The notes under the pieces were generated by a model, which searched no databases, was not told where the DNA came from, and saw only the letters and a list, made by a program, of their open reading frames with translations. This document shows, piece by piece, positions 6,226 to 53,034 of a DNA stretch of 61,036 nucleotides; position 1 is the stretch's first letter; the number at the start of each line of letters is the position of its first letter. The position numbers were made by a program, and so were the translations under genes. This stretch comes from Gemmatimonadota bacterium (GTDB lineage Bacteria; Gemmatimonadota; Gemmatimonadetes; Gemmatimonadales; GWC2-71-9): NCBI GenBank assembly GCA_039587215.1, contig JBDHIW010000005.1, forward strand, positions 1 through 61,036, in the 5' to 3' direction.

Positions 6226-8969
6226 TCGCACGGGATACCGACGTCGCGACCGCTACGATGACGCTCGACGGCGCGGAGGTGTCGTTCACCGTCGGCGAGA
6301 CGATCTACGAGGTGGCGCAGCGCCACGCCGTCGCGATTCCGACGCTCTGCTACGACCCACGGCTCGACCCGTTCGGCGGCTGCCGGCTCTGCGTCGTGTC
6401 CGTCGAGGGTATGCGCGGCCCCGTTGCGTCCTGCACGATGAAGGCGGAGCCCGACATGGTGGTGCGCACCACCACCGACGAGATCGACGGACTGCGAAAG
6501 ACGCTCCTCGAGATGGTCGTGTCCGAAAACCGCGAGGTCGACGTCGACCCTCTCCGGGGGTACGCGTCGCAGGAGCTCGCCACGCTCGCGGACCGCTACG
6601 GCGCCCGCACCGGGCGGTTCGCCGGGAAGCAGTCGGGCGCGACGCGCTCGGACGACGACAATCCGTTCATCCTCCGCGACTACGACCTCTGCATCTCGTG
6701 CTACCGCTGCGTACGGGTCTGTGCGGAGCGCGAGGGCGACTACGCCATCTCGGTCATGAACCGCGGGTTCGACACGAAGATCACGGTCGAGTTCGAGGGC
6801 CTGCTCAAGGACTCGGCATGCACGTTCTGCGGCCAGTGCGTACAGACGTGCCCGACGGGAGCGCTCGCCGACCGGAAGGCACTCCGCTTCGACCACGTCG
6901 AAGCCCCGATCGAGAAGACGCGCACGATCTGCCCCTACTGCGGGGTGGGCTGCTCGGTCGACATCATGACGAAGGGCGACACGATGGTGGGCGTCCAGCC
7001 CGCCATGGACGGTCCTGCCAACCTCGGAGCGCTCTGCATCAAGGGCCAGTTCGCCTACGACTTCGTGCAGCACCCCGACCGTCTCGGCAGCCCGCTCGTG
7101 CGGGGCGAGGACGGCGAGTTGCACGAGACCGACTGGGACACGGCGCTCGACCGCGCCGCCGATGGATTCCGCCGCTCACTCGACCAATACGGACGGCACA
7201 GTGTCTATGGCGTCGCGTCGGGTCGCGCGCCGCATGAAGCTGCGTACACCATGCAGAAGTTCATGCGCGCGGGATTCGGCACGAACTACATAGACAACTG
7301 TAGCCGTGCCTGACACGCTCCCACGGTTGCCGGTCTGGCAGCCACGATTGGACGAGGCGCCATGTCGAACCCGCTGGCCGACATGGAGGAGCCGAAGGTC
7401 ATCTTCTGCATCGGTACGAACATGACCGAGTGCCACCCGGTCGCCGCGACTCGCCTCAAGCGGGCCCTGGCGAAGGGGGCCAAGCTCATCGTCGCCGACC
7501 CGCGAAGGATCGGACTCGCCGACCTCGCGGATCTCTACCTTCCGCTGCGCGTGGGCTCGGACGCGGCCCTGCTGCTCGGCATGGCGCACGTGATCCAACG
7601 CGACGGGCTGGTGAACGACGCGTTCATGGCGGAGCGGACGACGGAAGGCGAGAAGTTCCTCGAGCACGTCCAGCAGTTCACGCCCGAATGGACGGAGGAG
7701 ATCACCGGCGTACCCGCTGCCGACATCGAGCAGGCGGCCCGCTGGTACGCGGATACGGACCGCGGAGCGATCTACTACACGCTGGGCATCACCGAGCATA
7801 TCTGCGGTGTGGACAACGTGCAGAGCCTCTGCAACCTGGCCCTCATGACCGGCAACATCGGCCGCGAGGGAACGGGCATCAATCCAATGCGGGGCCAGAA
7901 CAACATCCAGGGCGCGGGCGACTGCGGCGCGCTGCCCAACAACTACGTCGGTTTCCAGGCGGTGACCGATCCGGCGTACCAGGCCAAGTTCGAAGCCGCC
8001 TACGGCCGCCAGGTCGATCTCGAGAAAGGCATCACCAAGGTCACCGCCCTCGAGCTGTGCGGCGACCAAATCCGCGCGATGCTGATCGATGGCGAGAATA
8101 CGGTCGTCTCGGACCCGGACCGGGAGCACTGCCAGCACGCGCTCGAGAGTCTCGACCACCTCGTCGTGATCGACATCTTCCTCACGGAGACCGCGGAACT
8201 CGCCGACGTCGTGCTCCCCGCCACCGCGTGGGGTGAAACCGACGGTGTCTGCACGAACACCGAGCGGCGCGTCCAGCGGCTTCGCGGGGCGGTCGCGCCG
8301 CCGGGCCAGGCCAAGCCCGACTGGTGGATCGTGTCGCAGATTGCCAAGCGGCTCGGGATCCCGGGCTTCGACTACACCGAGCCCAAAGAGGTCTTCAACG
8401 AGATCTGCGAGCTCTCGCCGATCTACCACGGGCTCGACTGGGATCGAATCGAGCACAGCGAGTATCAGTGGCCGGTGCCGGAGAAAGACCACCCGGGCAC
8501 GCCGCGACTCCACGAAGAGGGGTTCGTGAACGGCCGGGGCATCTTCTCGCTCATCACCTATCGCGATCCCGCGGAGACCGTGAGCGACGCGTACCCCGTC
8601 TGGCTCACGACGGGGCGCCGGCTCCAGTCCTATCACACCCGGACGCAGACCGGTCGCGCGCAGGGCATCGATTATCTGCTGTCGGAGGAAATGCTGGAGG
8701 TGCATCCCGACGACGTGACGGCATGGGGTCTCACGGACGGCGGCTGGGCCACGATGCACAGCGCGCGCGGCAGCGTACAAGTGAAGGTGCAGGCGAACCG
8801 ACGCAGTCCGCGCGGGACCGTGTTCGCCAGCTTCAGTTTCAACGACGTGCCGATCAACGTCCTGACCGGCGGCGGCTATGATCCGGTGACCCACACGGCC
8901 GAGCTCAAGGTCTGCCCCGTGCGCGTGGAGCCCGCGACGGCGCCTGCCGACGTCGGAACGCCGACATGA
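6222..8969 (+). CDS. fdhA: Formate dehydrogenase alpha subunit (molybdopterin, FdsA/FdhA type), selenocysteine-containing; TGA 7311-7313 read as Sec
   Basis: Joins the tail of track ORF 5637..7313 (true start ATG 6222, MIARDTDV...) to ORF 7362..8969; both are in the same frame. N-terminal 2Fe-2S (CYDPRLDPFGGCRLC), 4Fe-4S (CISCYRCVRVC, CTFCGQCVQTCP) and Mo-bisPGD 4Fe-4S (CPYCGVGCSVD) motifs. Active-site context IDNCSRA-[TGA]-HAPTVAGL. Confidence 0.85.
7311..7343 (+). promoter_or_regulatory. Selenocysteine recoding site: UGA plus SECIS-like hairpin
   Basis: TGA is at 7311-7313. After an 11-nt spacer cacgctcccac comes GGUUGCC-GGUCU-GGCAGCC (7325..7343), a 7-bp stem (one G-U pair) with a GGUCU loop. 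It closely resembles the E. coli fdhF SECIS apical hairpin GGUUGCAGGUCUGCACC, which also sits 11 nt after its UGA. Confidence 0.8.
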
Positions 8970-9631: not shown

Positions 9632-10180
9632 ATGCCGACCATCCGACTCGCCCTCGTGGCCACGCTCGTCTGTCTGTTCTCGCGCCCCGTTGCCGCGCAG
9701 GAGGAAGAGCGGATGCCGATCCCGCTCAGTCAGTTCGGCAGCGTCACGCAGCGTGTGGGCTACACCGACATCGAGGTGCGATACCGCCGACCCGTCGCGC
9801 GTGGCCGCGAGCTCTTCGGCGGCATCGTCGACTGGGGTCGCACCTGGACGCCAGGCGCCGACTCGGCCACGACGCTCGCGTTCTCGACCGACGTCCGCGT
9901 GAACGACCGGGCGCTGCCCGCGGGGAAGTACAGCCTCTGGCTCGTCCCGGCCGCGGACGGTCCGTGGACCGCGATCCTGAGCCACGCCGCCGAGGTCTAC
10001 CACGCGCCCTACCCGGGAGAGGAGCATGACGCCCTGCGCGTCGCGGTCGTGCCGGAGCGCGGGAGTCACATGGAAGTGCTGGGCGTGTACTTCCCGGAGG
10101 TCGGGCAGACGACCGCGGTCCTCCGCGTGCACTGGGGCGGGACGATCGTGCCGCTCAGGATCGACACCGGCGGCGGGTAG
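9632..10180 (+). CDS. DUF2911-family secreted protein
   Basis: Track ORF 9620..10180 starts at GTG; ATG 9632 is preferred. Signal peptide PTIRLALVATLVCLFSRPVAAQ. DUF2911-like core: YRRPVARGRELFGGIVDWGRTWTPGADSATTLAFS...GKYSLWLVP. Confidence 0.75.
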   Translation: MPTIRLALVATLVCLFSRPVAAQEEERMPIPLSQFGSVTQRVGYTDIEVRYRRPVARGRELFGGIVDWGRTWTPGADSATTLAFSTDVRVNDRALPAGKYSLWLVPAADGPWTAILSHAAEVYHAPYPGEEHDALRVAVVPERGSHMEVLGVYFPEVGQTTAVLRVHWGGTIVPLRIDTGGG

Positions 10181-10183
10181 CGG

Positions 10184-10888
10184 TCACGCCTCCCGGGTTG
10201 CGACGTACAGTCCACGCCCGGTCGGCCCTTCCGGGTCGTATGTCACCGCGAGTCCGGCGTCCGCGAAGGCCGTCTCCATCTCCGTCCGGGTGAAGAGCGA
10301 GAGCGTGTGGTGTTCGGTGTCGTGCCGGACCCCCGCTTCGGTCGCCGTGAGATAGTGGAACGTGAGCCGTGAGTGCCGCTCGTCGACCGCCGTATGCGAC
10401 ATGCGGCAGACCTTGCGGTCTTCCGTCTCGACGGTGAGACACGTGGTGAAGCCGTCCCGCATGGCCCCCGGCTCAAACCACGGTTCCACGACCAGCACGC
10501 CGGGATCGGCGAGGTGCGCGGCCATCGCCCGCATCGCGCGTCCGAGTGCCGCCGTATTGCGCAGGTAGCCGATCGAGCTGAAGAGACACACCACGGCGTC
10601 GTACCGGCGCCCCAGGTCGAACCCGCGCATGTCCGCCTCCGTGAAGCGCCCGGCTGGGTGCTTGGCGCGGGCAAGCGTCACGAACGCCGGCTCCAGGTCG
10701 ATGCCGTCCACCGCGAGCCCCTCGTCCGCGAAGAACCGCGCGTGCTCGGCCGTGCCGCACGCCACGTCGAGCAGCGTGGCGGCCGCCGGCACCCGCTCCC
10801 GCACGACCGCCGTCACGGCCCGGGCCTCGCCGCGGTAGTCCTTCTCGGCATAGAGCAGATCGTAGACGTCGGCGCTCATGGAGAACAC
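10184..10888 (-). CDS. Class I SAM-dependent methyltransferase (TylM1/DesVI-like fold)
   Basis: Motif I LLDVACGTAEH, then DGIDLEPAFV and VVCLFSSIGYL. The GTG 10888 start lies 6 nt after GGGAGG. An alternative ATG is at 10879. Confidence 0.8.
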   Translation of the reverse strand: MFSMSADVYDLLYAEKDYRGEARAVTAVVRERVPAAATLLDVACGTAEHARFFADEGLAVDGIDLEPAFVTLARAKHPAGRFTEADMRGFDLGRRYDAVVCLFSSIGYLRNTAALGRAMRAMAAHLADPGVLVVEPWFEPGAMRDGFTTCLTVETEDRKVCRMSHTAVDERHSRLTFHYLTATEAGVRHDTEHHTLSLFTRTEMETAFADAGLAVTYDPEGPTGRGLYVATREA

Positions 10889-11038
10889 GTCTCACCTCCC
10901 TCGCGACACGCCCCCTCGTCAGTCTAAGGTGCCCTTCCGACCCGGGTCGCGGGAGCCCTTGGGTCTCCCTCGCGGTTCCTCTGGCGGCGACATACGTTCC
11001 GGGGCCGCGCACACGTCAGCTCCCACACCACGGACGTC

Positions 11039-13306
11039 ATGCCCACGGATCACCCCTCTCGCCGCGACTTCGTCGCCGCCTCCGCCGCCTCCGCCGCCGC
11101 GGCGGCGTGGTCCGTCGGGGCCCCGGCGGCGCCGCGCGTCACGGCGGTGGCCACCCCGTTCCAGAGCCATCCGGACGGCGCGACGGTGCTGGTCCGCTTC
11201 GCCGCGACCGGCGTCGACGCGCCGGCCGGTCGGTTGCGGGTCTACGACGGGGGGCGGCGGCTCCTGGGTACCGCGGGCATGCTCAACACCGGCACGGAGT
11301 TGCTGGGCGAGTTGTGGATGCCGCTGCCCCGCACGACCACGGTCCGGAGCGAATTGGAGGCGCCCGGCGTGCGCGGCGTGCATCGGACGACGCACCGGCT
11401 GGTGCCGCCTCCCAGATGGACCGCGTACTGGCTGGCAGTCGTCGACGGGGCCGCGCTCGATGCGCACCTCGACGCACTCGATCCGCTCGCGCGCACGGTG
11501 CGGGCCGGGCTCCTGCGCGAAGCCGGACTCGCCGTGAACCCCCTCGCCGCCACCGCCGACCGCGCGCGGGACCACGTCGCCTTTCTTCAGCAGGCGCGCA
11601 TCGCCGCCCACGTGCAGCGCACCCTCGGCATCCCCGTGAGCCCGCTGGCGTGGTCGGCGGACGGCGTGCCGCCCGTCCGGGTGCTGGGGGCACTCGTCGG
11701 GTCGGGTGTCACCGCCGTAGCCTATCCGGCGGCCGCACCCGCCGCGCAGATCGTCCCCCTCGGGATGGCGGGGCAGATCCTCGCCGTGGGCGTGCCCGCG
11801 GCGGCCACCGCCGACGGGACGCGGATCGAGACGCAGATCGGCGCGATGGAGATGGGCCTCGGCGGATGGCTGCTCGCTCGCTCGGCGGAGCCCGGCAGCT
11901 CGGAGCGCGTCGTGATGCTCGTGAGCGACGACGTCGAGGCGGTGGTGCAGGCGCGCGCCAACGTCGAAGAGTGGAACCGCCGCTACGCGTATCCCCGCAT
12001 CGTGGTGGGCGCCCCCGCACCGCAGCACTTCCCGAGCGCGCCCGTGATCGCTGCACCCGCGCCGTCTCCCAGTGCCATCCCCGGAGCGGACGCGCGCGCC
12101 GCCGCACGCTCGGCGGACGAAACCCGGGCGGCCGAGCACAGCGACCGCCTCTTCGCGGCACTGGCACGGCTGGTCGGTGATGCGGATGCACCCGCGGCAG
12201 CCGTCGCCGGCGCCATCGGCTCGGCGGTGCCCGGCACGGTCGTCTTCAATCCGACGCCGTACCTCCGCACCGAAGCGCTCGTCGACGCGGACGGCCGCCT
12301 GCGCATGGCCACCGACGTTCCGCCGCTCGGGTACGCGTACCTGCCCGATCTCCGCGATGCTCCGTCGGTGCCCGCGCCGGAGGCAATCGCGGCACCCTTC
12401 ACCGCTCGCGCGGGCGACACGACGGTTCGGCTGGACGATGAAACCGGAGCGGTCGCGTCGGTCATCGATCCCGACGGCACCGAGTGGGTACACGACGGCC
12501 TCAACGCAGTGGCCGGAGCGGTGCTCACGCGCGTCGCGCGACAGGACCTGCCGGGTGTCGGGGTCCGCTTGCACATCGACCGTCGCCTGCCGAACGGCAG
12601 CCCCTTCCGCTCGGTCGTGACGGTCCATGCCGGCCGGCGCTGGATCGACGTCGAGAACACCTTTGCCGACGACGCACCCGCGCCCGACATCACGTTCCGA
12701 TTCGCCGCCGTGCCCACCCGCGCCGCCTGGGAGGTGCCGGGGGGCGTCGAAGAGCGCGACGTGCCCGTCGCCGGGGCGGACCACCTGCGGTGGGTGTTTC
12801 TCCGCGGAGCACAGAACGTGTTCCTCCGCGCCGAGGGCGCGCCGTGGTTCTCGATCGGTGCGGACGGCACGTTTACGAGTCACGCCCCACCCGGGCGGGC
12901 GCGCTACCGGGTCGCCGCGGACACCCTGCCGGCCACGGCGACCGACGCGGCCCGTGTGGGATGGAGCACCGAACCGCTTCGTGTCGTGCACGCGTCCGGC
13001 GGCGACGGACCGCTGCCGCGCTGGGGATCACTGATGGAGCTGGACCAGGCCGGCGCGGCGATCGTCGGCGTGGCCGACGGCGATGCGGACGGCGTGACGA
13101 TCTTCGTACAGGAGCTCTCGGGCACCGGGCGCACGCTGACGCTCGCAGGCGGCCTGCTCCGCTTCCGGACCGCCGAGGTCGTCGACTTCACCGGACGGGT
13201 CGTTCCGTCCGCCGCCGCGCCCGTGCCCGGGGGCGTGAGCTTCCCCATCCGGGGGCGCGGCTTCACCGCCGTGCGCCTCGGCGGTCTCCACCTGCCCGAG
13301 GGTTGA
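11039..13306 (+). CDS. Tat-signal secreted protein of unknown function, with a C-terminal region reminiscent of the glycoside hydrolase 38 C-terminal domain
   Basis: Twin-arginine motif SRRDFVAASAASAAAAAW at the N-terminus. 755 aa with consistent G/C third positions. The opposite-strand ORF 10919..12991 is Arg-rich shadow. The GH38-C resemblance (VVFNPTPYLRTE..., TVRLDDETGAVASVIDPDGTEWV) is recollection only. Confidence 0.6.
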   Translation: MPTDHPSRRDFVAASAASAAAAAWSVGAPAAPRVTAVATPFQSHPDGATVLVRFAATGVDAPAGRLRVYDGGRRLLGTAGMLNTGTELLGELWMPLPRTTTVRSELEAPGVRGVHRTTHRLVPPPRWTAYWLAVVDGAALDAHLDALDPLARTVRAGLLREAGLAVNPLAATADRARDHVAFLQQARIAAHVQRTLGIPVSPLAWSADGVPPVRVLGALVGSGVTAVAYPAAAPAAQIVPLGMAGQILAVGVPAAATADGTRIETQIGAMEMGLGGWLLARSAEPGSSERVVMLVSDDVEAVVQARANVEEWNRRYAYPRIVVGAPAPQHFPSAPVIAAPAPSPSAIPGADARAAARSADETRAAEHSDRLFAALARLVGDADAPAAAVAGAIGSAVPGTVVFNPTPYLRTEALVDADGRLRMATDVPPLGYAYLPDLRDAPSVPAPEAIAAPFTARAGDTTVRLDDETGAVASVIDPDGTEWVHDGLNAVAGAVLTRVARQDLPGVGVRLHIDRRLPNGSPFRSVVTVHAGRRWIDVENTFADDAPAPDITFRFAAVPTRAAWEVPGGVEERDVPVAGADHLRWVFLRGAQNVFLRAEGAPWFSIGADGTFTSHAPPGRARYRVAADTLPATATDAARVGWSTEPLRVVHASGGDGPLPRWGSLMELDQAGAAIVGVADGDADGVTIFVQELSGTGRTLTLAGGLLRFRTAEVVDFTGRVVPSAAAPVPGGVSFPIRGRGFTAVRLGGLHLPEG

Positions 13307-43292: not shown

Positions 43293-45161
43293 ATGCCCGC
43301 CACGCGAGAGCGCCCACCACAAGCCTTCACGCGACGCATCGCCGTCGAGACGCCCGAGCACGTCGTTCTGCAGTTGGAGCTCGCCGGTCTGGGGTCACGT
43401 GTCGCGGCGGCCCTGCTCGATCTCGTCGTGCAGGTGGGGATTCTGCTGCTGCTCGTCGTGGCAGTGGCCCTGGCCGGGGCGAGCGGGTTTGCCGCGGCCC
43501 TCGGGGACGTGGCGGGGGGGTGGATCAGCGCGCTGCTGGTCGTGGTCTGGTTCGCGATCCTCTGGGGCTACTTCGCCCTGTTCGAGGCCCTCTGGGGTGG
43601 ACGCACGCCGGGCAAACACCGGCTCGGCATCCGCGTGGTCATGGACACGGGACACCCGGTGACCTTCGGCGCGGCGGCGATCCGGAACCTGCTGCGCATC
43701 GCGGACGCACAGCCCTTCAACATGTACCTGGTAGGGCTGCCCTTCCTGTTCTTTCAGCGGCATCACCGCCGCCTTGGCGACCTCGTGGCCGGCACCATCG
43801 TGGTCTACGACCGCCCCGCGGAAGGGGGGCTCGCCGCGGCGGCCGAGGCCGCGCAGGACATCGCTCCGCCCCTCGATCTCGGGCCGCCCCAGCTCTCCGA
43901 CGACGAGTTCCACCTGCTGGACCGCGTGGTGTCGCGGCTCGACGATCTCGACGCGGCGTCGCGGCAACGCCTGCTGCCCCCGGTCCTCGAGCGGCTTTCC
44001 GCCCGAGTCCCGTGGGACGGCCGGCGTCCCGAGGGATTCTTGACCACACTACACACGGACGAACTCGCCCGGCGTCAGGCCCGCAGCGCGACGCGCACGG
44101 GCAGCGACGCCGCGAAAGCATCGAGCTCGGCGCACCGGTTCGTGGCGCTCCGACAAGCCGAGTGGAGCCAGTTCCACCGGGACGCCATGCAGATACAGCG
44201 CGGGCTGGCCGGACTCGGCGGGGACGAGATCATCCAGTTCACCCGACGGTACCGAGCAATCACCGCCGATCTGGCACGCGCCCGCACGTACGGGGTCGAC
44301 CAGCGGACGCTCGAGTACCTCGAGCGAATCGCGAGCGCCGGCCACAACGCAGTCTACGGCCTGCGCGGCGTGCGCCGCGTCCCGCTGGGCCAGCTACTGC
44401 TGCGCGAGCTTCCCCGCGCGGTGTACCGTCAGCGGCGGCTGGTGGCGGCCGCCGCCGCGATCTTCTTCCTGCCCGGTTTCGCCGGCTACACGCTCGTCCG
44501 CGAGCAGCCGGAGCTTGCCACCCAGATCCTGCCCGCCGTCATGATCGAGCGTGCCGAGTCGGGTGCCTACGCCATCGAGACGGGCCGTGGATACGCCGAA
44601 ACCCCGTCACCGTACCTGCCGACGGTGGCGTCGCAGATCGTGGCCAACAACGTCCAGGTCGCGTTCGGAGCGTTCGCGCTCGGGATCGCCGGCGGCGTCG
44701 GCACGGTGGCGGTGCTGGGATTCAACGGCGTGTTTTTCGGTGCGGTCCTCGGTCTGTTCGCCAACTACGGGATCGTCGGGTGGCTGCTCACGTTCGTGGC
44801 CGGACACGGCGTCCTCGAGCTCACCGCGATCTTCGTTGCCGGAGCCGCGGGCCTGCTCGTCGGCTCCGCCATCCTGCTGCCCGGCGACCTCGCGCGGCGC
44901 GACGCGCTCGTAGTGCGCGGCCGGGAGGCCATTCGACTCGTCGGTGCGGCCGCCTCGCTGCTCGTACTGGCCGGCCTCATCGAGGGGTTCCTGTCGGCAA
45001 GCGGCGCACCGACGGCCCTCAAGCTGGGGGTGAGCGCTGCTAGCGCCGTGCTGGTCGCGCTCTACTTCCTCGCGGGGCGTGGCGCACCGGCGGGCGCCGG
45101 TGCGCCGCCGCCGCCGGTCACTCCCGAGGAACGCCGACGCGAACCAGCAGCTTCTCCATGA
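43293..45161 (+). CDS. RDD-domain / SpoIIM-like (DUF95) fusion membrane protein
   Basis: N-terminal RDD domain (AAALLDLVVQ..., WGGRTPGKHRLGIRVV, RRLGDLVAGTIVV). Central helical linker. C-terminal SpoIIM/DUF95-like region (IVANNVQVAFGAFALGIAGGVGTV...GHGVLELTAIFVAGAAGL). Confidence 0.75.
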   Translation: MPATRERPPQAFTRRIAVETPEHVVLQLELAGLGSRVAAALLDLVVQVGILLLLVVAVALAGASGFAAALGDVAGGWISALLVVVWFAILWGYFALFEALWGGRTPGKHRLGIRVVMDTGHPVTFGAAAIRNLLRIADAQPFNMYLVGLPFLFFQRHHRRLGDLVAGTIVVYDRPAEGGLAAAAEAAQDIAPPLDLGPPQLSDDEFHLLDRVVSRLDDLDAASRQRLLPPVLERLSARVPWDGRRPEGFLTTLHTDELARRQARSATRTGSDAAKASSSAHRFVALRQAEWSQFHRDAMQIQRGLAGLGGDEIIQFTRRYRAITADLARARTYGVDQRTLEYLERIASAGHNAVYGLRGVRRVPLGQLLLRELPRAVYRQRRLVAAAAAIFFLPGFAGYTLVREQPELATQILPAVMIERAESGAYAIETGRGYAETPSPYLPTVASQIVANNVQVAFGAFALGIAGGVGTVAVLGFNGVFFGAVLGLFANYGIVGWLLTFVAGHGVLELTAIFVAGAAGLLVGSAILLPGDLARRDALVVRGREAIRLVGAAASLLVLAGLIEGFLSASGAPTALKLGVSAASAVLVALYFLAGRGAPAGAGAPPPPVTPEERRREPAASP

Positions 45162-45309
45162 GGCACCACCGCGTCAGGCTCGACTGGACGAGATTCAGCC
45201 CAACGAAGGCTGTGAAGAGCAGCCACAGCGGGTTCACCCAGTAGCCCAGTACGAGTGACAGCAGCACGAACGATCCAGCGATCGCCCGAATGACGTAGTG
45301 CATGGTCAT
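45118..45309 (-). CDS. DUF2892 (YgaP-like) small membrane protein
   Basis: 63 aa, two TM segments, conserved ...NLVQSSLTRWCLMEKLL... single-Cys motif. ATG is preceded by gaggagg and overlaps the upstream stop (ATGA). Confidence 0.75.
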   Translation of the reverse strand: MTMHYVIRAIAGSFVLLSLVLGYWVNPLWLLFTAFVGLNLVQSSLTRWCLMEKLLVRVGVPRE

Positions 45310-45602
45310 ACGACCTCCTCGGCCGCGGACGCGTAGACGCGCAGTCCCGCGTGTCGGTGTTCAGTGGATTTGAGAGTGGCTAGCCGCTCGATGAGCGGCG
45401 CGCGACAGTCGTCGTCGACCATCACGAGATACAGCGTGTTGGATCCTGGAAACGCCCGGGTGCCGAACTTCTTCCCCGAGCGCCCCTTCCCATGCACCCG
45501 CGGGAACTCCGTATACCCCGGTAGGTCGCACTCGTCGAGGAGCTTCTCGACGTCCGACGCGTGATCCGCGTCGACGAACACCATCATCATCGTTCGCGTC
45601 AT
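45306..45602 (-). CDS. PII-like (GlnB-fold / DUF3240-like) small protein
   Basis: Tail of track ORF 45306..46103. ATG 45602 overlaps the RND stop (ATGA). MMMVFVDADHASDVEKLLDECDLPGYTEFPRVHGKG... has a beta-alpha-beta pattern typical of PII-like proteins found beside RND pumps. Confidence 0.6.
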   Translation of the reverse strand: MTRTMMMVFVDADHASDVEKLLDECDLPGYTEFPRVHGKGRSGKKFGTRAFPGSNTLYLVMVDDDCRAPLIERLATLKSTEHRHAGLRVYASAAEEVV

Positions 45603-48600
45603 CGTTCCATCTCGTAGTAGAGGAGAGGGATGGCCACGAGCGTGAGCGCCGTCGCGACGACCGCGCCGCTGATGAGAGCCATGCCCAGTCCCTGGAAAAT
45701 GGGATCGCGCACCATGACCAACCCGCCGATCACGACCGCCAGGGCGGTCAGGATGATGGGACGCGACCGAATCAGTCCGGACGCCACGACGGCCCGCCGT
45801 AGCGGCTCTCCGCGATCGAGTCCGAGCTGGATGAAGTCGACCAACAGGATCGAATTCCGGACGATGATGCCGGCCAGGGCGATCATCCCGATCATTGACG
45901 TCGCGGTGAAGAACGCGCCCGTCGCGGCATGCGCGGGCAGGATGCCGATGAGCGTCAGCGGGATCGGCGCCATGATCACGAGCGGGATCGTGAAGGACTG
46001 GAACCACGCCACGACGAGCACGTAGATCAGCACGAGCACGGCCGCGAACGCGATACCGAGATCGCGGAAGACGTCGCGGGTGACGTCCCACTCGCCGTCC
46101 CACACGACGAACGGCTCTTCGGTGAGCGTCGGCCCTTTGCCCCAGTGGACCGCGTTGTCACCCACCGCCTCCCGGAGCCCGTCTTCCATCTCGAGCATCG
46201 CGTACACCGGGCTCTCGAGTCGTCCGGCGACGTCCCCCGTGACATACACCACGGGCATCAGGTTCTTGTGGAAGATCGGCGTCGACGACTCCACCGTCTC
46301 GAACGCCGCGAGCGTGCCCAGCCGCCGGGCGCCGAGTGCCGTCGCAATCGGCATGGCCGCCAGCTCCGCCACCGACCCCATCAGCGAGTCCGGAAGCTGC
46401 ACGCGGATCGCCACCGCCTCCGCCGCCTGCTCGTCATGCAGGAGGCCCACGGCCGCGCCGTTCATGGACGCGGCGATCGTACGGGCCACGTCGTGCGGAT
46501 TGGTAGTGGCATACGCCGCCTCGGTCGGCGCCACCGACGCGCGGAGCTGGGCGTGCGACGCTTCGACGGACCAATCGACGTCGACCACGCCGTCCGTCGC
46601 AACAAAGACCTCGCGCACGCGCTCGGCCGCGGCGATCTGCGTCTCGTAGTCGGGCCCGTAGACCTCGGCCACCAGCGTCGCGTACACGGGCGGCCCCGGC
46701 GGAATCTCCGCCAGCTTCACCGCGGCTCCGAAGGCCGATGCGATCGAATCCACGACCGGGCGCATCCGCAGCGCAACATCGTGGCTCTGGTCGTCGCGGT
46801 GATGCTTGGCCACGAGGTTGACTTGCACGTCGGCCACAGTGGGACCGCGCCGAAGGAAGTAGTGGCGCACCAGCCCGTTGAAGTTGAAAGGTGCTGCGAC
46901 GCCCGCATACGTCTGGATATCCCGGACATCGGGATCGCGCGCCACGGCGAGCGCCAGCGCCTGCGCGACCTCCGCGGTGCGCTCCAACGTCGTCCCCTCC
47001 GGCATGTCGACGATCAACTGGAACTCACTCTTGTTGTCGAACGGCAGCATCTTCACCGTCACGAGCTTGGCGGGAAGCAGCACCACGGCGCCGAGCAGCA
47101 GCACGACCATCGCGCCGTACGCCATCACCCGTCGGCGCGTGCCGTCAAGCAGCCACTCGAGCATGCGCCGATACCAGGTCGCGAGCGCGCCGGTGGGAAG
47201 CGGTTCCGATGTCGACACCTCGACCTCGGTTGCGGGCGCGTGCCCCTTGACCAAGCGAATCGCCAGGTACGGCGTCACGATGAACGCCACCGCGAGGGAG
47301 AACAGCATCGCCACGGACGCTCCGACGGGGATCGGCTGCATGTACGGGCCCATCAGTCCGGACACGAACGCCATGGGCAGAATCGCGGCAATGACGGTGA
47401 AGGTCGCGAGGATCGTCGGATTCCCCACCTCGTCGACCGCGACCACCGCGGCTTCGTCCGGACTCCGCTGCCGCAATCCCAGATGGCGGGCGATGTTCTC
47501 GACGACGACGATCGCGTCGTCGACGAGGATACCGATCGCGAACACGAGCGCGAACAGGGTGATGCGGTTGAGCGTATATCCGTACAGGCGGTACACCAGC
47601 AGCGTCAGCGCGAGGGTGACGGGGACCGCCACCAGCACCACGACCGCCTCGCGCCATCCGAGCGCCCACCACACCAGCAGCACGACGCCGACCGTCGCGA
47701 CCAGAATGTGGAACAGGAGCTCCTGCGACTTCTCCGTGGCGGTTTCGCCATAGTCGCGCGTCACCGTCACCTGCACGTCCTCCGCGATCACTGCGCCGGT
47801 GAGATCGTCGACCCGAGCCATCACCTGGTGGGCGATGGTGGCGGCGTTGGTGCCCTCGCGCTTGGCAATCGCGACCGTCACGGCCGGCGTGAACGCGCTC
47901 CCCGCCGCACCGCCTGGCAGGAAGCTGACGTAGCTCTGGGGCTCGGCGGGACCGTCGGCCACGGTCGCGACGTCGCGCAACAGCACCGGGCGACCGGCCA
48001 CGACGCCCACAACGACGGTCTCCACCTGCTCCACCCGGCGCAGCAACCCACCCACCCGCACGGGCACGGTACGCTGCTGCATGAGGAGTTCGCCTGCCGG
48101 CAGCTCCGTGTTGGCCACACCCAACGCCTGCATCACGACGGCCGCCGACAGGCCGCGTGCCGAGAGCGCCTGGGGATCGAGTGTCACCGCGACTTCGCGG
48201 GGCGCGCCGCCGATGACCCACGTCTCCGCCACGTCCGGGATCCGCTTGAGTTCCGTGGCCAGTTCGGCCGCCTGCTGGCGCAGCAGGTAGCCGTCACCGA
48301 GATCGGCCCCGCCCGACAGCGTGATCGTGAGGATGGGGACCTCGTTGATCCCGTGCAGCGTGATCAGCGGCGGGGTCGCCCCGGGCGGGGTCTTGTCGGC
48401 GTTCGCCAGCAGTTTGCCGTAGAGGCGCGCCAACGCCATCTCGGGTTCCGTGCCCACATCGTAGCGCGCCGTGATCAATGCGCCGTCACTCTGGGCCACG
48501 CTGTAGACATAGTCGACCGACGGAATCTCCCAGATCATCCGCTCGAGCGGCTCGACGATGCGGCGCTCCACTTCGCTCGGCGTAGCGCCCGGCAACCCGA

Positions 48601-48760
48601 CCGCAACGTCGATCATCGGTACGCGGATCTGGGGCTCCTCTTCGCGCGGGGTGGTGAGCAGGCCGCCGATGCCCGCCACCATCGAAGCCCCCACGAGCAA
48701 TGGGGTCAGCTTCGAGTTCAGGAAGCGCTGCGCGATCGCGCCGGAGAACCCCGTCTTCAC
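45599..48760 (-). CDS. Efflux RND transporter permease (AcrB/CzcA superfamily)
   Basis: 1053 aa with 12-TM/two-large-loop architecture. N-terminal FLNSKLTPLLVGASMVAGIGG and FALVFAIGILVDDAIVVVENI motifs. GTG start overlaps the adaptor stop (GTGA). Confidence 0.9.
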   Translation of the reverse strand: MKTGFSGAIAQRFLNSKLTPLLVGASMVAGIGGLLTTPREEEPQIRVPMIDVAVGLPGATPSEVERRIVEPLERMIWEIPSVDYVYSVAQSDGALITARYDVGTEPEMALARLYGKLLANADKTPPGATPPLITLHGINEVPILTITLSGGADLGDGYLLRQQAAELATELKRIPDVAETWVIGGAPREVAVTLDPQALSARGLSAAVVMQALGVANTELPAGELLMQQRTVPVRVGGLLRRVEQVETVVVGVVAGRPVLLRDVATVADGPAEPQSYVSFLPGGAAGSAFTPAVTVAIAKREGTNAATIAHQVMARVDDLTGAVIAEDVQVTVTRDYGETATEKSQELLFHILVATVGVVLLVWWALGWREAVVVLVAVPVTLALTLLVYRLYGYTLNRITLFALVFAIGILVDDAIVVVENIARHLGLRQRSPDEAAVVAVDEVGNPTILATFTVIAAILPMAFVSGLMGPYMQPIPVGASVAMLFSLAVAFIVTPYLAIRLVKGHAPATEVEVSTSEPLPTGALATWYRRMLEWLLDGTRRRVMAYGAMVVLLLGAVVLLPAKLVTVKMLPFDNKSEFQLIVDMPEGTTLERTAEVAQALALAVARDPDVRDIQTYAGVAAPFNFNGLVRHYFLRRGPTVADVQVNLVAKHHRDDQSHDVALRMRPVVDSIASAFGAAVKLAEIPPGPPVYATLVAEVYGPDYETQIAAAERVREVFVATDGVVDVDWSVEASHAQLRASVAPTEAAYATTNPHDVARTIAASMNGAAVGLLHDEQAAEAVAIRVQLPDSLMGSVAELAAMPIATALGARRLGTLAAFETVESSTPIFHKNLMPVVYVTGDVAGRLESPVYAMLEMEDGLREAVGDNAVHWGKGPTLTEEPFVVWDGEWDVTRDVFRDLGIAFAAVLVLIYVLVVAWFQSFTIPLVIMAPIPLTLIGILPAHAATGAFFTATSMIGMIALAGIIVRNSILLVDFIQLGLDRGEPLRRAVVASGLIRSRPIILTALAVVIGGLVMVRDPIFQGLGMALISGAVVATALTLVAIPLLYYEMER

Positions 48761-49782
48761 AGGACGATCCTGTCGCCGACGGCCAGGCCGCTCAGTACCT
48801 CGACGCGCTCCTGGTCAACACCCTCGCGCCGCTGCTCCGGTGAGACTGCGCGACCGAGTCGGATCCAGCGGAGCACCGCACCGTCGTCGGTCAGCACGCG
48901 AACCCCGGTCAACTGACCCCGGCGCACGACCGCGTGCGCCGGGATCGCGATCGTGGACACTTCCCGACCGGGCACCAGCGCGGTGACGGCGATGCCCGTT
49001 GGCCAGTCCGCCGGAAGTGTGACACGCACCTCCACCGTCCGGGTCCGCGGGTCCGCTCCGGCCGCCACCGCGCGCACCGGCGCCACGACCTCACGCCCGC
49101 CGGGCTCCACGACGCGCACGGGCGCAGCGGTCTCCAGCTCCGCCGCCATGTCCACCGGGACGGCGAGGATGGCCTCACGCGCTCCGTCGCCCTCGATACC
49201 AATGAGCGACATACCGGGCGCGGCGAGATCACCGACGCTCACCGACCGCTGCACGACGAACCCCGCGAACGGTGCGCGGATCGCCGCATAGCGGTCCGCC
49301 GCCTCGACCTCGGCGACCGCCGCCTCCGCCATCGCCAGCTGCGCCGCAGCGTGGGTGCGCTGCAGGACCGCCTGATCACGCTGCACGCGGGCGACGGCGT
49401 CCTGCGCAAGCAACGTGTCCATGCGGGCCGCGTGACGCTCAGCCTCCGCCAGCCCGGCTCGAGCCACCGAGAGAGCCGCGTCCGCCTTCGCGCGGTTGGC
49501 CTCGATGTCATCCACTCCCAGGCGGACGAGCACCTGACCCGTCTCCACTCGCGCACCCACTTCGACGGTGACCGCCGTGACGCGCGCCATCATTCGGGTG
49601 GAGAGTGACGCCCGATTCACGCCCTGCACCGTGCCGTGCACCGGAAGCACGGTCGCGAGCGGTTCGGCCGTCACCGTCAGGGTCGGCGACACGTTCTGCA
49701 CCACCGGACGGGGCTCCGGCTCCGGATGGCCACACGCCGCGACCGCGGCCGTGGCGATGGTCCCTACCAGCAATCGCTTCAT
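48757..49782 (-). CDS. Efflux RND periplasmic adaptor (MFP/HlyD family) lipoprotein
   Basis: Lipoprotein signal MKRLLVGTIATAAVAACG. Coiled-coil hairpin region (ANRAKADAALSVARAGLAEAERHAARMDTL...). Barrel-sandwich motifs. Overlaps the neighbouring genes by 4 nt at both ends. Confidence 0.85.
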   Translation of the reverse strand: MKRLLVGTIATAAVAACGHPEPEPRPVVQNVSPTLTVTAEPLATVLPVHGTVQGVNRASLSTRMMARVTAVTVEVGARVETGQVLVRLGVDDIEANRAKADAALSVARAGLAEAERHAARMDTLLAQDAVARVQRDQAVLQRTHAAAQLAMAEAAVAEVEAADRYAAIRAPFAGFVVQRSVSVGDLAAPGMSLIGIEGDGAREAILAVPVDMAAELETAAPVRVVEPGGREVVAPVRAVAAGADPRTRTVEVRVTLPADWPTGIAVTALVPGREVSTIAIPAHAVVRRGQLTGVRVLTDDGAVLRWIRLGRAVSPEQRREGVDQERVEVLSGLAVGDRIVL

Positions 49783-51101
49783 CGGTCAAACACTCCGTAG
49801 GCAAAGTCCAGCGACGCCTGCGCCACGAAGAGGTCGTGACGGGCGCCGAGCAGATTCAGATCGGCAGCGGTCGTCGCTGCCTGCACATCCAACAGTTCCG
49901 TGATCGGGGACTGGCCCTGCTGGTACCGCAGTTCGGCCTGCGCGAGGGCCGCCCGGGCCTCCGCAACGCCCGCGGTCGCCACACCGACACGGGCGGCGGC
50001 CGCCCGGACGAACCGCGTCGCCGATTCCACTTCGAGCGCGGCCTGCCGCCGAGCCATCTCGGCCTGTGCTTCGGCCGCGTCTCGCTGGGCCGCCGCCGCC
50101 CTAACCGCGCCCACCCCCCCGAGCCCCTGGAGCACGTTCCACTTCACGACGAACCCCATCGTCCAATCGCCGCTGCCTCCCGACCACGGGGCCCCGCGGG
50201 CGTGCCGGGCGACCGTGCCGAACAGCGCGACGGAGGGGAGATTCCTTCCCCACGCACTGCGGACACCCGCCACCGCCGCTGCCGCCGCCAGCGACACCGC
50301 CTCGAGATCGGCCCGATCGTCGAGTGCGCAGCCCGCGCCGGGATCCGTGCATATCGTCGCGAATGCGCCGTCCAACGAGTCGGACAGGTCAAGCGTCACG
50401 GTGGGGTCGAGACCGATCAGCATCGCGAGGGCGTCGACGGCGTTGGCCGCCTGGGCACGGGCGGCGAGCTGCCGTGTCTCGACTTCAGCGGCACGCACCC
50501 GGGCGAGCCGCGCGTCCAGGCCCGTGACCATCCCCTGCGCACGCAGTGCTTCGGCCCGATCCACGTGGGCACGTGCAGTCGTCATCGCCGTCGCGAGTGT
50601 CTCCGCCCGCCGTGCGGCGAGTTGCGCACCCCAGTACGCCTGCACCACCTGGAAGACCGTTGCCCCCTCCATCCGGCGCGCCTCCGCGCGCTTGGCGTTG
50701 CCCATCCGCGTCGCCGCCGCGTGGCCGAAGAGCCCCTCCGGCGCGAACAGCGGCAGCGTGAGGGTGGCCGACGACGTGAAGCCACCGTAGGGCTCAGGCG
50801 CATTCAGCGCGTCCAGCGCGAGGTCCGCGGACGCGAAGTTCTCCTGTCGCAGCTTCAGCCCGAACGCACCGACGGGGTCCGTCGTCCGCACGCCGCTCAG
50901 ACCCAGCTCTACCGACGGCAGGAAGGCCCGCGTCGCATCGAGCGAGCGGTGGCGCTCCGCCTCCGCGCTCGAGCGCACCGCTACGAGCATGGCGTTGTCG
51001 CGGCGCGCCCGGTCGATCGCGTCGTCGAGCGACAGCGAGAGCGAGTCGCCCGCCAGCGGCGCGCCCTGAAGAGCGGCAAGTAATAGAGGTATAGCTATCA
51101 T
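49779..51101 (-). CDS. TolC-family outer membrane efflux protein
   Basis: 440 aa with two internally repeated helical/beta halves. LSLDDAIDRARRDNAMLVA is a typical OEP N-terminal motif. Its AT-rich first codons overlap repeat B. Confidence 0.8.
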   Translation of the reverse strand: MIAIPLLLAALQGAPLAGDSLSLSLDDAIDRARRDNAMLVAVRSSAEAERHRSLDATRAFLPSVELGLSGVRTTDPVGAFGLKLRQENFASADLALDALNAPEPYGGFTSSATLTLPLFAPEGLFGHAAATRMGNAKRAEARRMEGATVFQVVQAYWGAQLAARRAETLATAMTTARAHVDRAEALRAQGMVTGLDARLARVRAAEVETRQLAARAQAANAVDALAMLIGLDPTVTLDLSDSLDGAFATICTDPGAGCALDDRADLEAVSLAAAAAVAGVRSAWGRNLPSVALFGTVARHARGAPWSGGSGDWTMGFVVKWNVLQGLGGVGAVRAAAAQRDAAEAQAEMARRQAALEVESATRFVRAAAARVGVATAGVAEARAALAQAELRYQQGQSPITELLDVQAATTAADLNLLGARHDLFVAQASLDFAYGVFDR

Positions 51102-51108
51102 TATATGT
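51081..51108. repeat. AT-rich 28-bp element, copy B (candidate second ArsR operator)
   Basis: taatagaggtatagctatcattatatgt matches copy A (51462..51489) at 20 of 28 positions in my hand alignment, in the same orientation. It shares the ATAGAG and ATAGCTAT cores and spans the tolC-like start codon. Confidence 0.5.
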
Positions 51109-51144
51109 CTCTAGTCAAAAAAAACGGCCTTGGACGTACCGCGG

Positions 51145-51456
51145 TCAGAGGTCACAACTCCTGATGCACTCGAGAATGTGGCGCACCTTCGGCTCCACGA
51201 CCTCGTAGTACACGTGCACACCGTCACGCTCCGCATGGACGATGCCGTACTGGCGCAACCGTGCGAGATGCTGCGACACGATGGCCTGCTCCAATCCCAG
51301 TTCCTCCTGCACGTCCGTCACCGTCCGCGGCGCGTGTTCCAGCACCTCGAGGATTCTCAGGCGGTCCCCATGTCCGAGAATGCGGATCGCGTCGGCCGCC
51401 CGTTGGAGATCAGCCGGCGCCAGGTCGCGTACCATCTTGTGCTTCGTTCGTGCCAT
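51145..51456 (-). CDS. ArsR/SmtB-family transcriptional regulator
   Basis: Tail of track ORF 51145..53073. Winged-HTH LRILEVLEHAPRTVTDVQEELGLEQAIVSQHLARLRQYGIV. C-terminal Cys pair ECIRSC. The start is ATG 51456 (possibly leaderless) or ATG 51465. Confidence 0.85.
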   Translation of the reverse strand: MARTKHKMVRDLAPADLQRAADAIRILGHGDRLRILEVLEHAPRTVTDVQEELGLEQAIVSQHLARLRQYGIVHAERDGVHVYYEVVEPKVRHILECIRSCDL

Positions 51457-51461
51457 GATGG

Positions 51462-51494
51462 ACATAGAGTAATAGCTATTTATGTATGTGTCAA
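51462..51494 (-). promoter_or_regulatory. Candidate sigma70-type promoter of arsR with embedded palindromic operator (repeat copy A)
   Basis: The minus strand reads TTGACA (51494-51489), a 17-nt spacer, then TACTCT (51471-51466). The perfect palindrome AATAGCTATT (51471-51480) lies in the spacer. The -10 hexamer abuts the first ATG, so the transcript probably starts just before ATG 51456. Confidence 0.5.
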
Positions 51495-51580
51495 CCCCGC
51501 CGGCGGTGCTGCGGTTCCGCGCCCGGTTGCAGCGCATCGGTCGAGAGACCGTCAGAGCGGCCGCGCGTGTATGTTGCACC

Positions 51581-51943
51581 ATGCACGACATCGGAAACCT
51601 CGACGCGTCCGGACGTCGGATGCGACTCACCGCAGGGGTCGTGGCGATCGCCGTGGGCGTCGTGCTCGCGGCGGCCCTGGTGGCGCTCGACGCGGGGACC
51701 GGGTGGCGGCTCCTCACCTTCATTCCCTTCTGGGCCGGATCGCTCGGAATCCTCCAGGCCGGCACCAAGACCTGAATGGGACTCGCGGCGCGCGGTGCGC
51801 GCCAGGTCGACGGGTCGGGCGTCATCCCCATCGATGACGAACCCCTGAAGGCGGAATTGCGGCGTAAGGGTCGGCGCATCCTCCTCGAGAGCGCAGCCGT
51901 CGCCGCGGTACTCGCGACCGCCGCGGCGTTCGTCACCGCCTGA
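51581..51943 (+). CDS. DUF2892-like small membrane protein; candidate selenoprotein if TGA 51773-51775 is read through (otherwise two ORFs, 51581..51775 and 51776..51943)
   Basis: ATG 51581 (MHDIGNLDASGRRMRLTAGVV...). Two TM segments, then ...SLGILQAGTKT-[TGA]-MGLAARGARQ... continues in the same frame with unchanged G/C third-position bias to TGA 51941-51943. The TGA falls where the in-window DUF2892 paralog has its conserved Cys (LVQSSLTRWC). Confidence 0.45.
51787..51803 (+). promoter_or_regulatory. SECIS-like hairpin 11 nt downstream of TGA 51773
   Basis: GGCGCGC-GGU-GCGCGCC is a perfect 7-bp stem with a GGU loop. The spacer atgggactcgc is 11 nt, the same spacing as the fdhA SECIS in this window. 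GC-rich palindromes are common here, so chance cannot be excluded. Confidence 0.35.
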
Positions 51944-52017
51944 CGATTCCATAGCGGGAGCTTCAGAGCGCCCGTATCTTCCGACATTCGCTCTTGTTCG
52001 CACGCGGACGTCCCGAC

Positions 52018-53034
52018 ATGACCAACACCACCGAAACCCGCCGGCTCGGCCGGACCGGACCCCTCACGACCGGCGAACGCCCGGGCGCCGAGCGGAATCC
52101 CGGCGTGCCGCTGGACATGGACTGGATCCGCTCGCTGCAGGTCAATCGCAGCGCCGTGGAGCGGCGGGCGGCGACGATTCCGAAGCGCCGCACGGTCAAG
52201 AAGGAGTGGCAGGTCGCGTGGCTGCTGCGCGCGATCACGTGCCTCGACCTCACGACGCTCGCCGGCGACGACACCGACGGTACGGTTCGCCGTCTGTGCG
52301 GCAAGGCGCGGCAGCCGGTACGCGGCGACCTGCTCGACGTCCTCGGTGTCTCGCCGGACGCGATCCGCGTCGGCGCGGTCTGTGTCTACCATCAGTTCGT
52401 GGAGACCGCGCGCGACGCCCTCGCGGGCGCGGGCATTCCGATCGCCGCCGTCTCCACCGGCTTCCCGGCGGGCCTCAGTCCGTTCGCGCAGCGCCTCGAA
52501 GAGATTCACGCCTCGGTCGCCGCCGGGGCGCGGGAAATCGACATCGTCATCACGCGGGCGCACGTACTCACGGGCAACTGGCGCGCGCTGTACGACGAGG
52601 TGCGGGCCTTCCGCGAGGCCTGCGGCCCCGCCCACCTCAAGACGATCCTGGCGACGGGAGAGCTCGGACCGCTCCGCAACGTGGCGCGGGCAAGCTGGGT
52701 GTGCATGATGGCGGGCGCCGACTTCATCAAGACGTCGACCGGCAAGGAGTCGGTCAACGCCACGCTGCCGGTCGGGCTCGTCATGGCCCGCGCGATCCGC
52801 GGGTACCGGGAGCAGACGACCCACGCGGTCGGGCTCAAACCGGCGGGGGGCATCCGTCAGGCCAAGCAGGCGCTGGACTGGCTCCTGCTCGTCAAGGACG
52901 AACTCGGCAACGCCTGGCTCGACCCGTCGCGGTTCCGGTTCGGGGCCAGCTCGCTCCTCTCCGACATCGAGCGCCAAGTCGAACACTTCGTCACCGGTCG
53001 GTACTCGGCCTTCCACCGTCACCCGATGGCGTGA
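52018..53034 (+). CDS. deoC: Deoxyribose-phosphate aldolase (long DeoC type)
   Basis: ATG 52018 (the track start is TTG 51994). LDLTTLAGDDT, EIDIVI, GADFIKTSTGK (Schiff-base Lys region), LKPAGGIR. Confidence 0.85.
   Translation: MTNTTETRRLGRTGPLTTGERPGAERNPGVPLDMDWIRSLQVNRSAVERRAATIPKRRTVKKEWQVAWLLRAITCLDLTTLAGDDTDGTVRRLCGKARQPVRGDLLDVLGVSPDAIRVGAVCVYHQFVETARDALAGAGIPIAAVSTGFPAGLSPFAQRLEEIHASVAAGAREIDIVITRAHVLTGNWRALYDEVRAFREACGPAHLKTILATGELGPLRNVARASWVCMMAGADFIKTSTGKESVNATLPVGLVMARAIRGYREQTTHAVGLKPAGGIRQAKQALDWLLLVKDELGNAWLDPSRFRFGASSLLSDIERQVEHFVTGRYSAFHRHPMA

Follow-up and report, generated by a model that had tools for sequence, protein, structure and literature searches.

The DNA analysed here (the window) is a stretch of 61,036 nucleotides from a Gemmatimonadota bacterium, and this report concerns a small gene on its forward strand, at 51581..51943, that is crossed by an in-frame TGA codon and carries a hairpin shortly after it. 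An open reading frame (ORF) of 64 codons begins at ATG 51581 and is ended by the TGA at 51773–51775, beyond which the same frame continues for 55 more codons to a stop at 51941–51943. The part before the TGA, in the frame from ATG 51581, encodes MHDIGNLDASGRRMRLTAGVVAIAVGVVLAAALVALDAGTGWRLLTFIPFWAGSLGILQAGTKT, and the part after it, in frame until the stop, encodes MGLAARGARQVDGSGVIPIDDEPLKAELRRKGRRILLESAAVAAVLATAAAFVTA. Read as one unit, with the UGA (51773..51775, forward strand) taken as selenocysteine (Sec) at residue 65, the two parts would form a complete selenoprotein gene of 120 codons (64, the UGA and 55), whose product has three predicted helices and is a relative of the YgaP-like_TM family. 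The UGA falls in the cysteine column of the homologs and is also TGA in relatives. An initial annotation of the window had described an ORF from ATG 51581 to TGA 51773–51775 in a frame that stays open to 51943 with a third hydrophobic segment, and these coordinates were all exact. Its observation of G/C bias at third codon positions past the TGA also held, the 55 downstream codons having kept the frame, the G+C third-position bias and the motifs of the family.

Gene callers annotated two ORFs at this locus (P0001 and P0145) and placed the start at 51482, giving a 97-aa product. We prefer 51581 as the translation start, because it places an N-L-D motif five residues from the N-terminus, the same spacing as that of the NIG motif in the homologs, and because 51482 lies inside an AT-rich palindrome. 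Of the 19 large ORFs in the window, 15 end in TGA, which is thus the usual stop codon here, and a genome-wide reassignment of TGA is therefore excluded. L006, an assembly of this species made from a different sample, retains both the TGA and the hairpin; it is 99.83% identical, with 8 differences in 4763 nt, and an assembly error is therefore excluded as well.

Cysteine and TGA forms of the protein family

An initial search used the fused sequence with C in place of U and returned four metagenomic homologs of 125–149 aa that covered both halves and had Cys at the position of the TGA. A profile of these first homologs was then run against 1.84 billion representative proteins and recovered 1178 representative clusters at E<=1e-3, with 268 remaining at E<=1e-10. 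Almost all clusters were 115–140 aa in length and covered the whole profile. In a MAFFT alignment of the best 150 homologs the TGA column was Cys in 149 of 152 sequences, within the consensus LQAR-x-K-T-C-[VI]-x-L-A-A-R-G-x-R-[ND]-[LM]-D. At the same place the window reads ILQAGTKT-TGA-MGLAARGARQVDG, which fits the consensus C-[VI]-x-LAARG-x-R-x-x-D. The residues beyond the window TGA thus belong to the same conserved motif, and two unrelated ORFs are therefore excluded. The family is large, with members of about 120 aa and three predicted helices, and is without a Pfam or NCBIfam model of its own.

The N-terminal half of the family was also used as a profile against a collection of 5.8 billion proteins. 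This gave 76 matches, about 58 of which were short proteins of 63–73 aa ending exactly one residue before the Cys column, with termini such as ...QARKKT, ...FQARDKT, ...FQAKEKT, ...QALDKT and ...QAHQHT. The short records included 68-aa NCBI/JGI stubs named 'hypothetical protein', some of them NCBI entries in metagenome-assembled genomes (MAGs) labelled Deltaproteobacteria, Candidatus Binatia and Alphaproteobacteria. At the DNA level, the loci L007/L008, L009 and L010 all have a TGA followed in frame by the family motif and a third hydrophobic helix, the continuations being U-VVFAARGARKMNG in L007/L008, U-VRLSALGQRDMD in L009 and U-VRLASRGLRDMD in L010. L007 and L008 (positions 10001–11206 of each) form a clade from MAGs labelled Binatia or Deltaproteobacteria. 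In them the Sec module continues in frame into a DedA/VTT-domain membrane protein, the whole fusion comprising 401 codons. In the annotation this fusion appears as two products, a 68-aa stub and a VTT protein of 322 aa whose start is the first ATG past the TGA.

A peptide pattern from the region before the key column, LGVFQ[ASY][RLK][DEG]K, was used to scan metagenomes. This identified 80 loci, of which 79 were informative, and the key column was TGA in all 79, followed by about 52 conserved codons and a stop. Among 72 unique Sec-form genes, the ratio of nonsynonymous to synonymous substitution rates (dN/dS, Nei-Gojobori) was 0.28 in the 59 codons before the UGA and 0.27 in codons +12 to +50, past the hairpin. 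Judged by these substitution patterns, the region past the UGA is translated in the Sec-form relatives, with equal purifying selection on both sides. Directly past the TGA, 56 sequences have the codon GTG, 11 have GTC and three have GTA; L089 has ATC there, and L007 has GTC. A non-start codon (GTC, GTA or ATC) is thus found there in at least 15 lineages, and a restart of translation at this codon therefore cannot explain downstream expression. Taken together, the Cys forms and the TGA forms show a Sec/Cys interchange at the TGA column, as read from the alignments.

One of the 79 loci, L041, has a TAG at about positions 750–755 (codon +26 past the TGA), where its relatives have CAG (Gln). It is the sole such case and is probably a pseudogene allele or a sequencing error.

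The relationship of the family to DUF2892 was examined with profile models. The window protein, either fused or as separate halves, had no Pfam hit at E<=1 and matched no NCBIfam family, and no model in NCBIfam release 20 (June 2026) matched five other Sec or Cys members. For the Pfam family PF11127 (YgaP-like_TM, DUF2892), 21 of 80 family members matched at E<=1. The top member, P0006, scored 30.1 bits against a gathering cut-off of 25.3 and aligned with profile positions 3–59 of 66, a span that opens at the NIG motif and extends beyond the Cys. Most of the family, the window protein included, stays under the Pfam threshold. A Cys form at 3962–4351 of L005 (Gemmatimonadaceae MAG CAYMLW010000071.1), the sole match to a first, narrow pattern among 185,579 species-representative genomes, belongs to a 'YRTG-x-C-P-x-KAELG' subgroup, which is the best remaining PF11127 match and ties the family to DUF2892. 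A profile comparison between the family and the DUF2892 paralog in the window (45118–45309) found no relation, with a probability score of 0.24 of 100. Two further searches were negative: a metagenome scan based on patterns taken from the initial small alignment gave 384 pattern matches and no confirmed member, and a tblastn search of plasmids with one Cys form gave no match.

The family and YgaP-like_TM proteins, including the window paralog, have in common a basic N-terminal N-[IV]-G-x-x-[DE]-R-x-x-R motif, two transmembrane (TM) helices and a conserved Cys just past helix 2. The family differs in adding an LAARGxRDxD motif, a beta-hairpin, an amphipathic helix and a third TM helix. It is thus a divergent branch of the DUF2892 superfamily with an extended C-terminus, a distant relative linked through intermediates rather than a member by the curated threshold. 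The description of the product as DUF2892-like in the initial annotation therefore stands at the level of the family, by way of intermediates such as P0006 and the 21 members matching PF11127, but not for the window protein itself or for its comparison with the paralog.

The downstream hairpin and probable Sec decoding

The hairpin, GGCGCGC-GGU-GCGCGCC, lies on the forward strand at 51787..51803 and consists of a perfect 7-bp stem and a GGU triloop with a free energy (dG) of -12.9 kcal/mol. It starts 11 nt after the TGA, as the initial annotation had correctly recorded in both sequence and position, and its loop starts 18 nt after the UGA. The published model of the bacterial selenocysteine insertion sequence (SECIS) specifies a loop of 3–9 nt, an upper stem of 4–16 bp, G at the first two loop positions, a UGA-to-loop distance of 16–37 nt and a minimum free energy (MFE) of <= -7.5 kcal/mol (PMC13188914, Fig. 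2). With a loop of 3 nt, a stem of 7 bp, a spacing of 18 nt and its dG of -12.9, the window hairpin falls within every limit of this model. Hairpins of this exact kind are rare: perfect 7-bp ones with loops of 3–6 nt start at 56 of the 61,036 plus-strand positions of the window, and the loop starts with GGT in three of the 56. Such a hairpin stands 9–14 nt downstream of three of the 568 TGA triplets, counted in any frame. An Rfam scan of 51400–52100 returned chance-level matches only and no SECIS family.

The element was also compared among the relatives. A stem of at least 5 contiguous bp with a loop starting 18 nt past the UGA was present in 61 of 62 unique Sec-form sequences (the TGA plus 60 nt), with the hairpin starting 11–12 nt after the UGA, and the loop began with GGU in 60 of the 62. 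Two forms were observed. One has a stem of 6–7 bp and a GGU or GGC triloop, as in the window (GGCGCGC/GCGCGCC), the L009 clade (CGCGCUG/CAGCGCG), L007 (GCGCGC/GCGCGC) and L089 (GCACGC/GCGUGC). The other has a stem of 5–7 bp and a GGUC[A/U/G] pentaloop, for example AUCGCGC-GGUCA-GCGCGAU, and this is the loop type of the formate dehydrogenase gene fdhA in the window. Stem differences between lineages compensate one another with the pairing kept, as in CGCGCUG/CAGCGCG, GCACGC/GCGUGC and UCGCGC/GCGCGA.

The hairpin coincides with the coding sequence of the conserved A-[SA]-R-G-x-R-D motif, where codon choice was found to be nearly fixed in the Sec genes: CGC for Arg+6 (64/64), GGT for Gly+7 (71/72), CGC for Arg+9 (71/71), TCG for Ser+5 (39/39) and GCG for Ala+5 (31/32). 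At other Arg columns of the same genes the codons reach 55–87% of maximal entropy, and at other Gly columns GGT is used in 2–10 of 53–72 sequences. Synonymous difference per site was 0.21 in the hairpin codons and 0.61 on either side. The window codons GCG GCG CGC GGT GCG CGC follow the Sec-form pattern, with GGT making up only 10.9% of Gly codons there. Seven Cys-form genes, two of them with LAARG-x-R, have GGC or GGA for that Gly, mixed Arg codons and no comparable hairpin. These comparisons show that the hairpin is under selection at the RNA level in the Sec forms, as far as codon usage can reveal it.

A simpler origin of the hairpin, as a by-product of coding for A-A-R-G-x-R, was rejected on the evidence of Cys forms that share this motif yet use other codons and have no hairpin. 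The initial annotation had expected of a genuine selenoprotein gene that its homologs be single proteins with Cys at the TGA, and that its relatives keep the downstream frame and the hairpin. All of this was borne out, by the homologs of about 120 aa described above, by the continuation past the TGA, which is conserved at all 79 informative loci as well as at L007/L008, L009 and L010, and by the fixed stem position, GGU loop and synonymous-site constraint.

Sec decoding is also indicated by fdhA, which has its Sec codon at 7311–7313 in the context CSRA-UGA-HAPT and a SECIS hairpin, GGUUGCC-GGUCU-GGCAGCC, at 7325–7343 (together 7311..7343, forward strand). The hairpin starts 11 nt past the TGA and has GGU in its loop, exactly as first annotated, and the ORF past the UGA matches the Fdh-alpha model TIGR01591 (E 4.7e-164). 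Within 4540–8969 the Sec-containing fdhA is preceded by a gene with fused NuoE-like and NuoF-like domains (4540–6225), and this suggests a soluble NAD-linked formate dehydrogenase. The two genes are alike in having an in-frame UGA at a Cys/Sec position and, 11 nt on, a hairpin with a 7-bp stem and a loop starting with GGU, and the GGUCU/GGUCA pentaloop is common to fdhA and most relatives of the new family. They differ in that FdhA is an unrelated soluble molybdopterin enzyme and the new protein a 120-aa membrane protein, and in that the element of the new gene in the window combines a GGU triloop with a stem made up of G and C only, free of G-U pairs.

From these features the following mechanism can be proposed. 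At the UGA at 51773–51775, the hairpin 11 nt downstream would act as a bacterial SECIS and would recruit SelB with Sec-tRNA(Sec). Selenocysteine would then be inserted and 55 more codons translated, with the same decoding of UGA as in fdhA of the same organism. The Sec residue would presumably be the functional group of the protein.

Alternative explanations of the in-frame TGA

On the evidence of the comparisons above, the gene at 51581–51943 is very probably a genuine SECIS-dependent selenoprotein gene, of a family that is not in current inventories. A pseudogene or recent nonsense allele, in which a Cys codon (TGC or TGT) has become TGA with truncation past helix 2 and an incidental hairpin, would need only one base change. 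The sole other copy of the exact gene is the one 99.83% identical, which leaves selection in the lineage not directly measurable, and the related locus L041 carries a clear nonsense change (CAG to TAG) further downstream. We nevertheless consider this unlikely for the window gene, given that all 79 informative loci and several other lineages share the TGA at this column, with purifying selection equal on both sides. The window moreover has the rare hairpin codons GCG CGC GGT GCG CGC, including the infrequent GGT (10.9% of Gly codons), and a 7-bp hairpin with a GGT loop at only three of 61,036 plus-strand positions, and its 55 downstream codons are still in frame, with G+C bias at third positions and the motifs of the family intact. 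An arrangement of two small genes coupled by TGAATG, encoding a 64-aa two-helix and a 55-aa one-helix protein beside a chance G+C palindrome, had been the null explanation of the initial annotation. It has on its side the ATG directly past the TGA in the window and the two ORFs of the gene callers, P0001 and P0145. It is refuted as a general explanation by the GTC, GTA or ATC codons past the TGA in at least 15 lineages, and for the window we regard it as very improbable indeed: the homologs are single polypeptides with Cys at the junction, other TGA forms have GTC (11 sequences), GTA (three) or ATC next, which are unable to restart translation, and the hairpin is under synonymous-site selection.

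The amino acid inserted at the UGA is not readable from sequence alone, and downstream structures are able to stimulate readthrough in other systems. Both points count for a readthrough of the UGA in which Sec takes no part, for example by near-cognate insertion of Trp or Cys or by a hairpin that stimulates readthrough without SelB. This is improbable where the position is the single, nearly invariant Cys of a family, the classic signature of Sec/Cys exchange, where the hairpin agrees with SelB-dependent bacterial SECIS elements in its spacing and its GGU loop and is similar to that of fdhA in the same genome, and where TGA is the normal stop codon of the window. Several observations weigh against interpreting the window gene as a selenoprotein gene. 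The MFE of a 61-nt stretch was no better than that of shuffled sequences (z = 0.22), as would be expected at a G+C content of 69%. With 8 differences in 4763 nt, L006 is too close for a selection test on the window's own lineage, and the window protein is 40–49% identical to the verified Sec clade, its status resting partly on analogy. No match to selA, selB, selC or selD was found among the ten large window ORFs scanned, and no tRNA gene in the 61-kb window; the case for Sec decoding here therefore rests on the fdhA UGA and its SECIS.

Predicted membrane topology, gene neighbourhood and possible function

The architecture of the protein was predicted from the family alignment and from an AlphaFold2 model of a Cys homolog, P0180, which was built on a 105-sequence alignment and reached a mean pLDDT of 94.8 and a pTM of 0.85. 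In this model helices at residues 15–41 and 46–68 are followed by Cys71, a short helix (72–77), a beta-hairpin (79–88) and a long helix (91–119). In the window protein a basic N-terminal motif, N-L-D-x-x-G-R-R-x-R, precedes predicted TM helix 1 (about residues 17–36; 51629..51688), and predicted TM helix 2 (about residues 42–61; 51704..51763), WRLLTFIPFWAGSLGILQAG, ends three residues before the Sec. The predicted C-terminal TM helix 3 (about residues 100–120; 51878..51940) lies downstream of the UGA and is conserved in all Sec-form continuations. All three are on the forward strand, and their boundaries are approximate. The general layout would accordingly comprise a basic N-terminus (NIGxxERRxR), two TM helices, the Cys/Sec right past helix 2, a short beta-hairpin with an amphipathic helix, and the third TM helix. 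The single, nearly invariant Cys/Sec would lie within the motif QAR-x-K-T-[C/U]-V-x-L-A-A-R-G-x-R-D-x-D.

The Sec is probably located at the membrane surface, where helix 2 ends on the cytoplasmic side. The cytoplasmic side is favoured by the positive-inside rule, because the N-terminus (NIGPxERRKR) is basic, as is the stretch at the Cys/Sec, and the amphipathic segment is rich in R/K. The initial annotation had proposed a membrane-embedded Sec; the product does appear to be an integral membrane protein, but the charge distribution and the P0180 model place the Sec at the membrane interface and not buried in the bilayer. It was further found that 62 of 72 Sec forms are without any cysteine, and that 89 of 153 Cys forms, versus one of 70 Sec forms, have a second Cys no more than six residues ahead of the NIG motif. 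Either the partner Cys is dispensable once Sec is used, or this is a phylogenetic pattern. Since most Sec forms have no cysteine, the selenol most likely acts without an internal partner. It could by itself form a redox-active or ligand-binding site, or could pair with a second subunit or a small thiol.

Upstream of the selenoprotein gene, on the reverse strand at 51145..51456, is a divergent gene for an ArsR/SmtB-family regulator (Pfam HTH_5, 1.5e-12) that ends in a C-terminal CxxxC (...ECIRSCDL), in agreement with the back-to-back arrangement described in the initial annotation. The spacer between the two genes is 124 bp long and contains a 28-bp AT-rich palindrome, ACATAGAGTAATAGC/GCTATTTATGTATGT, at 51462..51489, which overlaps ATG 51482 in a genome of 69% G+C and is a candidate ArsR operator. 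The arsR gene heads a reverse-strand operon with genes for an outer-membrane factor (OEP; 49779–51101), a CusB/HlyD-like adaptor (48757–49782) and an AcrB-type RND pump (45599–48760), and the last gene of the operon is the 63-aa DUF2892 paralog (45118–45309; PF11127, 2.4e-10). Counting the selenoprotein gene beside this operon (45118–51456), two DUF2892-type genes therefore flank one ArsR regulator and an efflux system. Regulation of the selenoprotein gene by ArsR is possible, as suggested by the divergent arrangement and the common 124-bp intergenic region.

A comparable arrangement is known from Escherichia coli, in which ygaV, for a sulfide-responsive regulator of the ArsR/SqrR type, stands beside ygaP, for a membrane rhodanese (PMC9774250). 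In both cases the gene for an ArsR-family regulator adjoins a gene for a YgaP-like TM module. The window gene differs in that it is without a rhodanese domain and is divergent from the regulator gene instead of co-transcribed with it, and the cysteines of the window regulator are those of its C-terminal CxxxC. In addition, the association is not conserved at other loci. In Azospira, a DUF2892 gene is induced about 10-fold under H2S (PMC5358917).

With regard to function, we tentatively suggest a membrane-surface selenol that binds or reduces reactive sulfur or selenium species or soft metal(loid)s. A more specific and decidedly speculative proposal is that the family takes part in chalcogen or metalloid traffic as a membrane-anchored selenol/thiol relay on the cytoplasmic side, perhaps capturing selenium or sulfur or handing it over for uptake or detoxification. 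This proposal is based on the DedA/VTT fusion in the Binatia-type clade, the ArsR and RND operon with its second DUF2892 gene, and the H2S-induced DUF2892 gene in Azospira. Other results speak against these functional assignments. Beyond close relatives, the neighbourhoods of the 80 loci share no gene, the largest cluster comprising 15 loci, and the pairing with arsR was seen only in the lineage of the window. Searches of the PDB by sequence profile and by fold returned nothing meaningful, with best E-values of 0.88 and 2.2. As the neighbourhoods of the other Sec and Cys loci differ from one another, the link to a stress response is to be taken as a lead only.

The family was compared with the known selenoproteins. 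A 2026 review compiled 119 prokaryotic selenoprotein families or subfamilies with model accessions, and there is no YgaP-like or DUF2892 entry in its Table 1 (PMC13188914). None of the Pfam and NCBIfam selenoprotein models matched the window protein, nor did any of the NCBIfam models match the five other members, a comparison that covers the listed families apart from those with cd- or PTHR-only accessions. We found no report of Sec in DUF2892 proteins in the literature outside subscription-only papers. Membrane selenoproteins that are known or predicted comprise the YeeE/YedE family, a MerT-like mercuric transport protein, the SaoP permease and the SO_0444 Cu/Zn efflux transporter (PMC13188914, Table 1). 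Like the new family, these proteins are integral to the membrane and carry Sec in place of a functional Cys, and most are tied to the handling of sulfur, selenium or soft metals. They have no sequence relation to the new family, which is much smaller and usually has a single Sec with no Cys partner.

The recoding mechanism proposed for the window gene is the well-known bacterial one, and the value of the finding lies in the family, which would be small, membrane-bound, equipped with a single Sec, common in soil and systematically mis-annotated. It would add a widespread family of selenoproteins, found mostly in soil metagenomes, whose genes are split in two by current annotation. Sec as the only chalcogen residue of a small integral membrane protein is unusual, most bacterial selenoproteins being soluble thioredoxin-fold proteins or CxxU/UxxC redox proteins. 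The codons of A-R-G-x-R can spell a G+C hairpin with the Gly codon as its loop, and this may explain a conversion from Cys to Sec in several branches. No specific selenium transport system is known in prokaryotes, which PMC13188914 lists as an open question; if the relay proposal were true, the family could bear on this missing system. A profile of the family would correct hundreds of truncated gene calls and would provide a new marker of selenium use in soil bacteria of Gemmatimonadota-like and Binatia-like lineages.

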